A DNA stretch of 64,000 nt from an uncultured Candidatus Micrarchaeota archaeon (GCA_963833485.1 CAWHXT010000005.1:347545-411544), one strand, 5' to 3'; positions 36,246-45,079 are shown, counted from the first letter of the stretch. The notes: generated by a model from the letters alone, not told the origin. Made by a program: numbers and translations.

Positions 36246-39200
36246 ATGAAGAACAACAAGGCGCAGATTGCTATCGAATTCCTAGTAATATTTTCGTTCG
36301 TCCTGATAATATTTACATTCTTCTTCGTGCTGATAGTAAACCAGAGGGCTTCGGGGATGACCGATCAAACCTTTGCCCAGGCGCAGCTAATAGCTCAGAG
36401 CGTCGCAACGCAAATAGCTACAGCATATCAGGCGGGGAATGGCTATTCAAACCTCATGCTGTTGAGCAGCAGCATAGGCAACATACCGTTCAACGTTTCG
36501 GTAACGAAAAACGGAGTAGTGGTGGTGTCCGCGCTGAGCGTCAAGCAGGTGGTGCATGCTGTGGCATACAGTGGCGTTGACAATATCTTTTCAAGTTCTG
36601 CATACCTGACTAACTCTGTTTACCTTCTTCCAACATCCAACGGCTCAATTTACCTTCAGAACTCATTCGGCACAATATGCATAGACTATTCATGCCCTGC
36701 GACCTCCAATCAGCCCGCGACTGTCTCCATCCAAAATCAGCTGTACACGGCTGCAGTGCTCAATGGAGTCAGCGGCTACCTTGACACTGATTACTCATCC
36801 TCTCCATACTTTTCTAATACAGAGACACAGCTCGCATGGGTCTATCTTAATGCTCTTCCTAATACTGGAAATACCTATTACGTGACTTCACAACGCAGCG
36901 GCATTGGTGGAATGTACATAACCGCTACAGGTAATGTTGTGTTCAACGTATACACTGGTGGCGCAAATATGCAGGTGACCAGCAGCAACAGCATAGTCCC
37001 AGGACAATGGTACATGCTCAGTGGTATGTACTCTTCAACAGCTTCAACTGAAGGAGTCTGTATATACAATGTAACTCTATCAGGCTGCAATACGATATCT
37101 GCTACAGGCACTATAACTGCGTCGGCAAACGAACTTTACATCGGAGCTAATTCTGGGCTCAACTCTTTCTTCAACGGAAGAATAACAAATATCCAAATTT
37201 ACAACATCTCTCTATCCAATGCTCAATTGCAAGGAGAATTTTACAAAGGGATAAATGCACCTCCAATAAGCCCTTCCAACTCTATCAAAGCATGGTATCC
37301 ATTCACAGGTGGCACGGGCATCGACTTTAGCGGCAACAACGTGAGCCTTGTAGCTGGCACTCCTGTAGTCTACACCAGTGGTTCTGAGATAGAAACGCAG
37401 GTAAAGAACAGTCTTGGAAAGAACTTGGGTGCAAACGTCTTGGTAGGCTTTCAGACTTCTCTTGGAAACTTTTCCGATGGGCTCGGTCCAGGAGGATTTA
37501 CTGCTTCTTACACCAACAACAGCGGGGTCGCAATAGCCTTTCTCAACCAACAGGCAAACAACGGCAATGCAACTGTGAAAGTTTCCGCTTTCAATGGTAA
37601 CGCATCTGTCGTAGGTTCTCTTGCAGCATGGTATCCAATGAACTTTGGGCTCAGAAATAAAGCTTACGATCTTAGCTTAAATCAGAACACTGGCGGCTTG
37701 TTCGGCAATTTCACATGGACGTATCCAGATTATGTGGCGTCGTTCAATGGAAAGGCAGGATATATAGAAATTCCATCAAACACCTATTTTGATCCAGGAC
37801 AAACCACGAGCAACATAGTCGTATCTGCATGGGTGAACTTCAAAGCAGTTAGCGGCAACCAGCTCATAGTTGGAAAATGGGTAGGCGCAAACATGGAGTA
37901 TCAGCTCAGGGCAGAGAACAACCAGCTCAAATTCTACATACATATAGGAAGCAACAACTACTCTGCCGTAGCTTACAATGCGCTTGTTCCAAACACATGG
38001 TACTTTGTTGTAGGTAAATACAACTCCGGAGCTAGCAAAATAAGTCTTTTCATCAATGGTGTAATGGTCGGCGCTAACACGTTGAGCAACGCTGTGACTT
38101 CTACGTTGGCGCCAGTTTATATAGGTGGAAGAAACGGCACAAAATACACTGACTTCTTCAACGGTTCCATCGCCAACATACAGATATCACATAACGACAT
38201 TCCAGCAAACGTGATAGAATCAATGTACATGAGTGGAATAGATGGTGTGTCTCATACCTCAAGTGCAACCTCCCCAGGGCTTGTAGCAAGATATCCTCTT
38301 GACGGAGATGCATTTGACTATTCAGGAAATAACTTCAATGGCACTCTAATCGGGAATGTTTCATTCACTCCTATTTCAAGTGTCTTGCCAATGCAGTTTC
38401 TTTCAAGTGGTGGTGTCGCAAAGACAACAGCGGCCTCTTTCAATGGTGTGATAAGCTATGTAGCCCTTCCACCACTACAACTACTGAATCATACAACAAA
38501 TGCTTCTATTTCAGCATGGGTCAATCCTCAACCATTTAACCACAATGTTATAATATTTGCAGAGACAAAGAACAGCCTCGGGTTTGCTCCAGTAATGCAG
38601 CTCTTTATCAACGGTACCAGCCAAGTTGAAGCGGACTTCGGCACCGGAATTGCATGGATGGTAAAAGCTAAGACTGTTGGAAGCAACTCTCTGTTCGACC
38701 CGATAGACACGGTGCCTTCTTGGTACAACATAGTGGCCACCTGGGAGAGCGGCACAGGAGTCAATATTTATATAAATGGAGTCAAACAGCAGCTTACTTA
38801 TACTTTGGGAAGCGCAGCGACTACAGGAACGCTTGTGATACCGTACAATCCAACCACCTACATTGGATACAACGGTACCTCTGCTGCAACTTTCAACGGG
38901 CGCATCGCGAACCTTCAGCTCTACAATGTAAACCTCACCAGTACTCAGACTCAAAGGCTTTATTATGAGGGTCTTTCAGGTCTACCTGTTAACCAGACAG
39001 GACTTGTTGCATGGTACCAGCTCGATGGTGCAGCAATAGACTATGGTCGCAATGGATACAACGGAACCGCAACCAACGTGATTTATGCAGATACGCAGAT
39101 AACACAGCCGTCCCTCACCAGTTCACTTAACGGCACAGGCATAAACTTCAACTCCAAATTTGGGTACGCAATATTGCCTGTTAGTTCTTCTTTAGAGTCA

Positions 39201-42400: not shown

Positions 42401-45079
42401 AAACAAACAGCAAGAAGGGCCAGCTGATGACGATATTGGTACTGATACTGTTCCTTCTGCTGCTCTCCACGCTCATCTCATACGCAATACTTACAATAAG
42501 CTATAACACAATAGACCAGAATCTCGACCTCTCGGAGGGCTCTCTTGTAAACCTGAGAACGCTTTCTGCAAGCGGTAGCACTTTCGCTAATGCAAGCCTC
42601 AGCACTGCGTTAGTGACTCTCGCAAAATATGAATACAATGCGTCCATGAGAAAATCTAACTTCATAAACAACACTGCCGTCTTCCTAGAATATTTGATTA
42701 CCAACGGCATACTTCCCGGAGTTGCACCGGGTTCAACTGCCGGGCGCTACTTGCTTAAGAGTATGGGCAGCCTCACACTAATTACGTACAACTCCTACCT
42801 CTCAAACACTCTCGGCACTGCAGCAACATCCTTAGTGATAAATGAATCAAACGTCTCAGTTTTCCAGAGTAGTCCGACATCTTTATCTGTCACATATATA
42901 GAAAATCTACTCATGAACTCCTCTAGCGGAACTTACAGATACAACATACCGATAAACGCCACGATATCCCTGAATGGGACCCCAGATCTGCTTAGTTACG
43001 AACTCGGGATTCCTGAAAATATCAAGTTTGGAGATACGACAAACCTTACCGTTTCTCTCGGTGGCACCTCTGCGATAAATGGGGTGGGCACAGGCTACAT
43101 ATATGGGATAGTGGCGACGGTACCAAAACACAGTCACGTGCGCGACCATAGGAAGCAGCGTACCGGCAGGTTTCAACAGCGCGCCTTTCAACTCTTACAT
43201 AATAATTTCAACGACAAATGCCTACGGCATAACTGGAGGAGGCTGCACTGCAGCAAACTGGTACGGAGGGCTTATAACGGAGAACGTTCAGACGCCATCA
43301 TCAATTACGGTTCCATGGCTCCAATATCCTATCACCAAAACCACCCTCTTCGGAAACATAATAACCGGACAGCAGATCCTATTGGATCAACAGTCGCTTT
43401 CAACCTACAACATACAGAATCTGATAAATGCAGCAGGCAATGGTTATTATTTCTCTTCGCCTTTTGCCCCATCTTATCTTACCAGAGCGCAGGATTCCTT
43501 CACCCAGCCTTCTTCTTATGGAATTTTTACATTTTCAGATTACAACCTTCCCGCTGCGACCTTCAACGGTTTAGGAAAAATAACAGCTACAGCGCCCACA
43601 ATCAACACTGTTGCTGGCGGTTATGACACCGTATCCTTCTGGATGACATGGAATGGAGTTGCAGACATGGTTCCGTTCGGCTTCACTGCATCTTCCAACA
43701 ACTATAACTTTTACATCAGCTCTGCAACATGCGCAGGAGTAAGCGTCAGCCTAGGGTCACCCGGTGACGTATACGGCATAACCAACACGGTAGCATTTAA
43801 TCAAAAATGGGCTTTTGTGACTCTAGAATTATACAATGGCCCTTATACAGCAAACACCCTCATATTCATAAATGGCCAGAATCAGAAACTTTCTCAGTGT
43901 CTTGGTTCAGCATGGCCGACCTCCACAATTTCAACGCAGTTTACGATTTCAGGATGGAGCGTCAACAACCTGCATAGGTTCAACAGGAGCATCGCAAATG
44001 TGCAGATATACAACACGTCATTATCCTCTTATCAAGTCTTTCAACTCTACGAAGAGGGAATATCTGGCGTTCCGCTAAACACCAATTCTCTTGTAGCCTG
44101 GTATCCATTAAGAAACAATGCTAATGACCTTAGCGGAAACGGTTTCAATGGGGTAGCATCAAACGTAGTATATACTGAAATAAACAACTACTCTATGGAC
44201 AGCTTCCTGACTAGGAACGTGCCGACCAACACATCTGATATACCAGGGCTGCTTTCCTCTTGCAGGCTAACTTCTCAATGCCTCAATTATAATAGTCCTG
44301 GTGTGTCGATAGGCTATAATCCATTAGAAGTGCAAAGCCAGCTCGGGCAGGTCGCAAATCTTAATGGATACAGCTCCAACATACCAACAGGGGTAGTTTA
44401 TCTGCCCGGTAACACGGTTCCTCGTACAATATCCTTCTGGGCCTATCCCGCAAATGGAAACGTACCGGCATACCAATATCTAGTAGCGGAAACAGGAACC
44501 GCATCAAGCTTAGCTTGTTCTGGGTACTGTCTCAGCTACGGACGCTCCTCTTCAGGAGTCCCTAATACGATAAGCGTAAGCGCTTGCGGCGTAACCTTCT
44601 CAAGCGCCAGTCCTGCCCAGATGGGCCAATGGAGCCATTTTATATTAGAGCTTGGTCCTAATTCGGCTACTGGAACCAACACCATAAATCTCACAATCAA
44701 TGGAGTGACTGGAATCTCAGTTCTTGATAGGTGTTCTAGTAATTCCAACTCTCTTGTGATTGGGAGCGCAAACGGAAACGGAGATTTCTTCAACGGTTCG
44801 ATAACAAATGTGCAGATATATGGTGGCACATTGACTAGTGCGCAGAGGCTTCAGCTTTTCAATGAGGGGGTATTTGGATTGCCGATTACAAACAATGCAA
44901 ATCTTATGGGATGGTATCCACTTCAAGGAAATGCAAACGATTACAGCGGAAATAATAATAAGAATGTGTTTGCTAACAATGTGACCTATCCTTACTTCAG
45001 CGGGCTGTACGCATTTAACGGGCTTTCCACAGTATCAAGCAGCACAAACGAGTGGGGTACAATAGGAATAACTAGATGA
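42397..45079 (+). CDS. Class-III-signal protein (about 890 aa) with two LamG modules; interrupted by a frameshift at an A4 run
   Basis: MKTNSKKG|QLMTILVLILFLLLL, with ATGA overlap on the upstream stop. The ORF pieces 42391..43626 and 43382..45079 join as ...GIVATVP-NTVTCATIGSSVPAGFNSAPF... if one A of 43125..43128 is skipped. The LamG signatures are RFNRSIANVQIYNTSLSSYQVFQLYEEG and FFNGSITNVQIYGGTLTSAQRLQLFNEG. Confidence 0.75.

Follow-up and report, generated by a model that had tools for sequence, protein, structure and literature searches.

Where does a repeated LamG module end, and are such modules moved about by recombination? These questions are raised by a locus in a 64,000-nucleotide stretch of DNA from an uncultured Candidatus Micrarchaeota archaeon (GCA_963833485.1, CAWHXT010000005.1:347545-411544; the whole stretch is called the window in what follows), in which three large proteins encoded by neighbouring genes, here called A, B and C, contain LamG modules connected by a conserved joint. 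The first-pass annotation had described a signature of module end and joint that is repeated seven times, and had taken it, together with the joints near the C-termini of B and C that have no module behind them, to suggest expansion and shuffling by recombination within and between the three genes. The account at which we arrive, and which we consider likely, is that the proteins carry exchangeable LamG cores on a conserved scaffold, that the tryptophan-containing strand of the joint (the Trp strand) closes the module that precedes it, and that the proteins are probably pilus adhesins.

The seven-fold signature is borne out by the searches. Pfam Laminin_G_3 (PF13385) matches four stretches in A, one in B and two in C, with 221.8, 72.3 and 67.1 bits, respectively (cut-off 27.6), and a regular expression for the end motif FNGxIxNxQIY finds it seven times, at A309, A638, A883, A1112, B610, C530 and C800. 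Each end motif is followed, 37-41 residues further on, by a joint with a Trp strand of the LVAWYPL type. Six of these are located at A347, A679, A920, B647, C567 and C838, while the seventh is shortened, protein A stopping at MSWFP exactly in register. A hidden Markov model built from the seven modules matches only the open reading frames of A, B and C in the window. As had been noticed, B and C end shortly past a joint, with 72 and 58 residues, respectively, between the last joint and the protein end and no full module after it. Two elements had been overlooked, namely the MSWFP strand of A, which makes a third orphan joint at a C-terminus, and an eighth joint, A459, which comes after an immunoglobulin-like (Ig-like) insert of about 90 residues and not after a LamG core. 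The genes and their parts are the following:

36246..39707, plus strand: gene A, pilin-like, with four LamG modules, the Ig-like insert and the terminal strand MSWFP (open reading frame, Pfam, motif search)
36768..37283, plus strand: module A1, with end motif FNGRITNIQIY and helix, and no leading joint
37284..37361, plus strand: joint after A1, IKAWYPF..., followed by the Ig-like insert (motif search)
37362..37619, plus strand: Ig-like insert, about 90 residues (sub-threshold Big_1 match in the orthologues P0066 and P0069)
37620..37715, plus strand: extra joint LAAWYPM..., leading into A2, the sole joint without a preceding LamG core
37716..38279, plus strand: module A2, end motif FNGSIANIQIS (Pfam, motif search)
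38280..38360, plus strand: joint after A2, LVARYPL... (motif search)
38361..39002, plus strand: module A3 (match to C-reactive protein 4pbp, E value 1.4e-6)
39003..39080, plus strand: joint after A3, LVAWYQL... (motif search)
39081..39689, plus strand: module A4, end motif FNGSISNLQIY (Pfam, motif search)
39690..39704, plus strand: terminal strand MSWFP, a minimal joint at the extreme C-terminus of A, 37 residues past the Phe of FNG
40244..42400, plus strand: gene B, 718 residues, with a pilin-like helix at the N-terminus, a beta-propeller of PQQ type, a single LamG module and a 72-residue tail (open reading frame, Pfam)
41606..42181, plus strand: module B1, end motif FNGSIADFQIY (Pfam, motif search)
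42182..42397, plus strand: tail of B, made up of joint LVAWFPL, another strand and a beta-hairpin that closes with VVAWR
42391..45079, plus strand: gene C, pilin-like, with two LamG modules and a 58-residue tail, frameshifted (open reading frame; about 895 residues once rejoined)
43544..44089, plus strand: module C1, end motif FNRSIANVQIY, with no leading joint (motif search)
44090..44167, plus strand: joint after C1, LVAWYPL... (motif search)
44168..44902, plus strand: module C2, end motif FNGSITNVQIY (Pfam, motif search)
44903..45076, plus strand: tail of C, with joint LMGWYPL and a conserved ...NEWGTIG

Each module is a LamG/pentraxin-type beta-sandwich made of a variable core and a conserved scaffold. 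The core, of about 130-150 residues, begins directly past the start strand A(S/N)FNG. To the scaffold belong FNGxIxNxQIY, which is the final strand of the core, a helix (LSxxQxxxLY), a loop (G(I/L)xGxP), the Trp strand LVAWYPL, the turn DYSGNGxNG and a second strand, and it is this scaffold that was originally called the joint.

The Ig-like insert of the window gave no Pfam match. The array of joint, insert and joint (37284-37715) is kept in all A orthologues, where it appears as a 'partial module' match.

If the orphan joints were debris of recombination, as was first supposed, they would have to be weighed against their conservation. All 22 aligned orthologues have the tail of B, in which W650 and P652 do not vary; its consensus is GLxAWYPLxGDxNDY...GYPxxVxF...NYxP...NAYxISxAS..LP..NYTTG....YxVGVYSWR. 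The tail of C, with the consensus LVGWWPLNGNANDYSG..NNGT..NV.YPYFSG...NEWQxLG, is kept in about 10 C orthologues, and its residues W511, P513, L514, G516, N517 and D520 are invariant. Most of the 17 full-length orthologues of A end in PLSWxP, and most A-family members, both from Micrarchaeota and among proteins named Marsarchaeota, have (V/I)P(L/M)(S/G)WxP at the C-terminus. B variants with two modules likewise finish with a new joint and GVVAWR.

The position of the Trp strand was also counted over the family, in 74 distinct proteins with 129 modules. It lies 36-44 residues past the end motif in 111 of the 129, and the remaining ones are mostly mis-hits of the search pattern or have a hydrophobic terminal strand in the same register. 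Of the 71 first modules, 68 have no leading joint. When each strand in the window is assigned to the core before it, a single joint (A459) is left unexplained; if each is given to the following core instead, three cores lack a strand and four strands lack a core. The Trp strand is thus found after every core, at three C-termini and before the Ig-like insert, most likely because it closes the sandwich of the preceding module. Since it would do so, the orphan joints can be regarded as complete and conserved domain endings, and not as leftovers. They behave as part of the preceding domain, and their reading as recombination remnants is not supported for the window.

The same assignment is suggested by the similarity to pentraxins, which are single-domain proteins in which the residues past the helix are part of the same sandwich. 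The Pfam family Pentaxin (PF00354) matches A with 32.4 bits and the orthologue P0066 with 39.3 bits (cut-off 25), and B with 19.3 bits only. In P0066 the match covers residues 315-366 and profile positions 142-189 of 194, that is, the end motif, the helix and the trailing joint, which corresponds to the joint after A1, and in B the model extends to profile position 180, at the Trp strand. With phmmer, GNLMGWW was aligned with GNVISW (residues 194-198) in 3flp, a SAP-like pentraxin from Limulus with 217 residues, and the listed match of A3 is to a zebrafish C-reactive protein. The structural model of C superimposes on SAP (1sac) with a template-modelling score (TM-score) of 0.70, normalised to the target. 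The boundaries of Laminin_G_3 imply that the WYPL strand comes first in the domain, whereas in the pentraxin alignments it falls at the end of the domain before.

The AlphaFold2 model of B has a mean predicted local distance difference test (pLDDT) of 83 and a predicted TM-score (pTM) of 0.84, and its tail is ordered beta structure, with strands at 647-651, 668-675, 689-700 and 707-717 and pLDDT values of 82-92 in most 10-residue blocks, with one dip to 59. In the model of C, the pLDDT of the tail is below 50. The last joint forms a five-residue strand there, and no downstream strand is long enough to pair with it, so that its partner should, according to this model, lie in C2. The propeller of B matches BamB and YxaL, and a Foldseek search with the B model gave beta-propeller matches only.

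Another option considered was donor-strand complementation, in which the C-terminal Trp strands of A, B and C would enter the first modules of their neighbours and tie a tip complex together. Donor-strand exchange occurs in other archaeal filaments, and the three first cores that have no leading joint, together with the four joints that have no following core (the three C-terminal ones and A347), would be accommodated by it. However, it has to deal with seven such mismatches, where assignment to the preceding core leaves the one unexplained joint, the pentraxin homology puts the strand in its own domain, and the B monomer is modelled as compact with its tail ordered. We therefore find this arrangement very unlikely. 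There is also a consequence for annotation: the Trp strand, with which Pfam begins Laminin_G_3, behaves here like the closing piece of the module in front, and a C-terminal "partial domain" in a protein of this kind should therefore not be taken for a truncation.

The next question is how old the modules of this locus are. Pairwise, the seven share 21-33% protein identity, with no closer pair either within or between genes. The DNA repeated among them is the motif alone (40 nucleotides (nt) at 60-80%, 19-28 nt at 77-91%), and a sensitive self-BLAST of the locus gave one weak match, of 40 nt at 80%. Exact DNA matches between joints do not exceed 16 nt, and between genes they reach 11-14 nt. The modules of the window are thus old paralogues with no recent duplication or gene conversion among them, which agrees with the initial caution that recent gene conversion was not demonstrated. 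The lineage of the window thus looks quiescent, or its joints have drifted apart.

Two dedicated devices for variation were also considered. Silent donor cassettes of the pilE/pilS type were not found in the 64-kb window that was searched, where LamG modules occur only in the three expressed genes. For a diversity-generating retroelement, there is no near-identical repeat of any core in 35.7-45.2 kb that could be the template, a reverse transcriptase not having been specifically searched for. The alternative cores found in relatives differ by indels and have 15-30% identity, not adenine-specific substitutions.

For the comparison of module numbers, syntenic loci were reached via the platform protein of the pilus machinery (58-74% identical to that of the window) and by exact-protein look-ups. 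Gene order in these loci is as in the window. The databases hold no close strain of the window's lineage, the best non-self matches being 32-41% identical. In four loci (L001, L003, L007 and L018) the counts are the same as in the window, with four modules and the partial/Ig element after module 1 in A, one module and the tail in B, and two modules and the tail in C, and all 17 full-length A orthologues have four modules. Among deeper relatives the number does vary. The B-type proteins P0006, P0009 and P0018 have two modules, and in the clade formed by L014-L017 there are three modules in A, two in B, which has no propeller, and three in C. Module number hence differs from that of the window only in the deeper relatives, the closer lineages being fixed at 4/1/2.

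In two further loci (L011 and L012, 11.7-15.0 kb) only an A-type gene lies by the platform genes, with no B- or C-type gene within the 10 kb fetched. In L015, a PIN/VapB toxin-antitoxin pair (4148-4750) is located between the C-type gene and the platform genes, and it is absent from L016 and L017.

These results bear on the possibility that the array expands and shuffles within this locus, the C-terminal joints being stumps of lost or broken modules. The motifs common to all seven modules would fit such a scenario, and so would the full extra module that stands past the joint in P0006, P0009 and P0018. Against it, the tails are fixed in sequence and length in all orthologues, the two-module variants still end in a fresh joint with GVVAWR, the window modules are divergent in protein and have no DNA similarity, and the 4/1/2 pattern is constant in the syntenic loci. 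For the window this reading is largely refuted, and we hold it to be quite unlikely overall.

We now turn to the relatives, in which the idea of shuffling fares better. Single-linkage clustering of modules at 36% identity merged nearly all of them and was uninformative because the conserved ends dominate, and the cores were therefore compared by core-only BLAST. L014-L017 are four contigs from four samples, whose platform proteins share about 96% identity among themselves and 52-53% with that of the window. The C-type genes of L014 and L015 have 98.3% DNA identity in their N-terminal domain, joints, second module and tail, while cores 1 and 3 are unalignable, with 13-30% protein identity. The C-type gene of L017 equals that of L015 save for core 2, and L016 has yet other cores 1 and 3. 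The replaced segment in this clade extends from just past the A(S/N)FNG start strand to the end motif FNGSIxNxQIY or the helix behind it. No donor of a replaced core was found at >=50% identity, that is, at 50% identity or more, in the same contigs of L014-L017. In these loci the alleles of core 1 and core 3 co-vary (a/a, b/b, b/b, c/c), with core 2 independent of them, which may reflect functional coupling or joint transfer.

The same pattern is seen in loci that share the gene order of the window. L018 and L007 have 92-94% DNA identity over about 14.6 kb, with four gaps exactly at the cores of A1, A3, C1 and C2, and on the right-hand side the breakpoints fall within units of 161 nt, which recur with 78-89% identity among the joints of A1, A3 and C1. 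More generally, the end-motif/joint units of the relatives are DNA repeats of 110-175 nt with 70-89% identity, both within and between genes A and C; they are found in L018 at 10907-11067, 12578-12738, 17622-17781 and 18410-18567, several times in L007 and almost nowhere in the window. In A-family pairs, the N-terminus and core A2 are 97-98% identical and cores A1 and A3 21-26%.

Could the cores simply have diverged in place? In this alternative there is no recombination, and strong diversifying selection acts on the cores through point mutation only, the scaffold being constrained. When A of the window is compared with 23 orthologues, the scaffold is 40-47% identical and the cores 18-20%, no better than any paralogue, and this contrast alone could mean unequal rates. 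However, point-mutation divergence is excluded for the cases above because cores that are unalignable, of different lengths and with indels sit between flanks of 98% identity, and the boundaries are sharp. In addition, the same core type recurs at 60-73% identity in another gene or lineage, where the machinery is only 52% identical. The core of C3 in L014 and that of A1 in L007, for example, have 71% identity in protein and, over 358 nt, 72% in DNA, while the two lineages otherwise have platform proteins 52% identical and A and C proteins 30-33% identical overall. Another such pair is C2 of P0032 and the A3 core of P0064, at 73% identity. In all, 29 cross-position core pairs are at least 45% identical, A-C and A-B pairs included. 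The core type of A3 in the window is found elsewhere at C1 and A1 positions only, and that of C1 at C1, C2, A2 and A4 positions. Divergence by point mutation alone is consequently unlikely as a general explanation.

It is important to consider also that the mosaic could be an artefact of metagenome assembly, that is, chimeric contigs joined at the conserved joints of co-existing strains or paralogues. The joints of the relatives are indeed repeated at the lengths and identities given above, which can mislead short-read assemblers. Chimeras are nevertheless unlikely because the same alleles recur across independent samples and assemblers, with L015 and L017 sharing cores 1 and 3 at 95-97% and L018 (JGI) and L019 (ENA) being 99.9% identical over 23 kb. 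The repeats are moreover too divergent for exact k-mer collapse, and gene order and reading frames are intact. We regard an artefact as highly improbable.

The proposal of shuffling within and between the genes is therefore partly supported. It holds for the relatives, where cores are swapped and core types are shared across genes, and it does not hold for recent time in the window, with its divergent modules and fixed counts. To judge from these alignments, the joints would frame an exchange of modules by recombination over evolutionary time, both inside each of the three genes and from one to another.

Put together, the mechanism that we propose is as follows. The Trp strand would close the sandwich of the module before it, like the equivalent strand in single-domain pentraxins, and recombination inside the conserved scaffold would, over evolutionary time, exchange the cores as cassettes among strains, among positions and among the genes A, B and C. 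A core swap would change the binding specificity and leave the stalk unchanged. The anatomy of the modules, the constancy of the tails and, in relatives, the replacement of cores and the sharing of core types across genes are shown by the sequences, while recombination as the mechanism and a role in adhesion or host recognition are inferred.

Several observations weigh against this account. The placement of the Trp strand in the sheet is inferred; the AlphaFold2 model of C is poor, with an overall pLDDT of 60 and the low values in its tail already mentioned; and the pentraxin alignments of the window proteins through the joint are weak (E value 0.001 for B, and 0.06 in a forced global hhalign). 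Joint A459 precedes a core without following one, so that the strand can also lead a module, as the Laminin_G_3 boundaries imply. Finally, cassette exchange is seen in the relatives only, and not in the lineage of the window.

One can go further and suppose that in Micrarchaeota pilus adhesins the DNA-conserved end-motif/joint units act as recombination anchors through which LamG binding cores are carried from one of the genes A, B and C to another and across lineages. The Trp strand would be a universal adaptor by which every core can be fitted into every slot, and the host or surface recognition of these obligate symbionts would be retuned in this way. We give this extended version about an even chance. 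If it is true, archaea would have a counterpart to mosaic pilins and to the receptor-binding proteins of phages. Micrarchaeota and other DPANN archaea live attached to archaeal hosts, and the pilus-linked LamG proteins are good candidates for host-recognition molecules. If the cores are exchangeable cassettes on a fixed stalk, this would offer a testable explanation of strain-level differences in host range, and the 130-150-residue core segments would be the experimenters' choice for binding assays.

The assignment to a pilus is suggested by the genes around A, B and C. Between 35.7 and 49.2 kb lies a type IV filament operon that belongs to a Micrarchaeota (DPANN) archaeon; the loci nearest to the window are all from Micrarchaeota metagenome-assembled genomes, and the names of homologous proteins agree. 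The other features of the region are:

35761..36237, plus strand: small pilin-like protein of 158 residues, first in the operon (open reading frame; no Pfam match)
39695..40240, plus strand: small pilin-like protein of 181 residues (open reading frame)
43121..43127, plus strand: +1 frameshift at CCAAAAC, a run of four A, in gene C (open reading frame analysis)
45072..49198, minus strand: pilus machinery, with two T2SSF platform proteins, a 205-residue protein and a T2SSE ATPase (Pfam)

Downstream of C, the T2SSF matches have 64.4 and 52 bits and the T2SSE match 115.4 bits, so that a secretion ATPase and platform proteins are adjacent, as is characteristic of an archaeal type IV filament locus, and the same order is found in L015-L018. 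Five co-oriented genes have pilin-like N-termini, in the order 158-residue protein, A, 181-residue protein, B and C. Pfam Class_IIIsignal gives 16.5 bits in A, under the cut-off of 23.7, and the motifs KAQ|IAIEF, KG|IIFTLD and KKGQ|LMTIL, which resemble class III signals, are visible, together with a predicted helix at 8-26 in B. Each of the three proteins has such a signal-like hydrophobic helix at its N-terminus, and the operon has genes for an ATPase as well as two platform proteins. A, B and C are large pilin-like proteins of this operon and probably pilus-borne adhesins.

The product of gene A has 1153 residues, counting from MKNNKAQ. The 158-residue protein begins with a basic stretch, followed by LQSSFE and a hydrophobic helix, and its position is likewise filled in L018 and L020; a gene at the position of the 181-residue protein is present also in L014, L016, L017 and L018. 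Neighbouring genes overlap by 8-13 nt, at 39695-39707 (end of A and start of the 181-residue gene), 42391-42400 (end of B and start of C) and 45072-45079 (end of C and end of the convergent T2SSF gene), which suggests tight operon packing and possibly translational coupling. Orthologues of gene C are uninterrupted, with 862-912 residues, and its public annotation contains a 478-residue product only (P0036). The frameshift could be due to a pseudogene, a sequencing error or strain variation. With three A in the CCAAAAC run the sequence would read ...VPNTVTC..., in agreement with the orthologue consensus VPSGxTC. Upstream of the operon (32898-35771) are a DUF2079 membrane protein and a CBS-domain protein, and the CBS gene is kept there in L018 and L020.

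How does this locus compare with known systems? In full-text literature searches, neither the conserved terminal Trp strand nor the swapping of cores turned up as described for these proteins. In bacteria, lectin modules of the PF13385 family are frequently found fused to pilins (Raynaud et al. 2021, PMC8179133). Modular type IV pilins of this kind, such as Streptococcus sanguinis PilC, have in common with the present proteins the pilin-type signal (putative here) and helix, the concanavalin-A-like/Laminin_G_3 modules, the pilus operon and the presumed role as carbohydrate adhesin. The window case differs from those of the bacterial survey in being archaeal, with as many as four modules in tandem, an additional propeller or Ig insert, three adjacent genes and what appears to be scaffold-and-cassette evolution. 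Closer in phylogeny is the Micrarchaeon Mia14, for which an expansion of LamG tied to type IV pilus loci was reported and host interaction proposed (Golyshina et al. 2017, PMC5498576). It belongs to the same phylum and has expanded LamG jelly-roll proteins with type IV pilus loci, but that paper deals with the expansion only, and not with module anatomy, terminal strands or core swapping. Adhesin-like proteins encoded in loci of this type are mentioned in a 2026 survey of type IV filament systems in archaea, as are DPANN systems that have two platform genes.

The pentraxins (CRP and SAP; PF00354) share the fold and the C-terminal order of F/LxGxIxxxxxW/Y, helix and Trp strand. They differ in being single-domain, calcium-dependent, ring-forming animal proteins, while the window modules are in tandem on a pilin. 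The best solved sequence match to B1 is the HCN lectin-like jelly roll of clostridial neurotoxins (6hox, PMP1 Hc; PF07953), with an E value of 2.8e-5. In its alignment with B1 and the tail (41600-42397), the helix runs into 'DFWgEPL' opposite 'LVAW.FPL', and 6hox may use the same kind of junction to attach its next domain. The similarity is however weak, the domain that follows in the toxins is a beta-trefoil, and there is no toxin context in the window.

Finally, mosaic or cassette-variable adhesins are known from gene conversion at Neisseria pilE/pilS and from domain swapping in phage tail fibres. In Thermococcales, a hypervariable Ig-domain gene module has been described (PMC8416519). These systems and the present family are alike in having a constant framework, replaceable binding segments and breakpoints in conserved sequence. 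They differ in that no silent cassette store was found in the 64 kb of the window, and the exchange seen is one between strains, genes and lineages over evolutionary time and is not shown to be programmed or frequent. The window is thus an ordinary member of its family, without recent exchange, and the family pattern is a variation on the familiar mosaic-adhesin theme.

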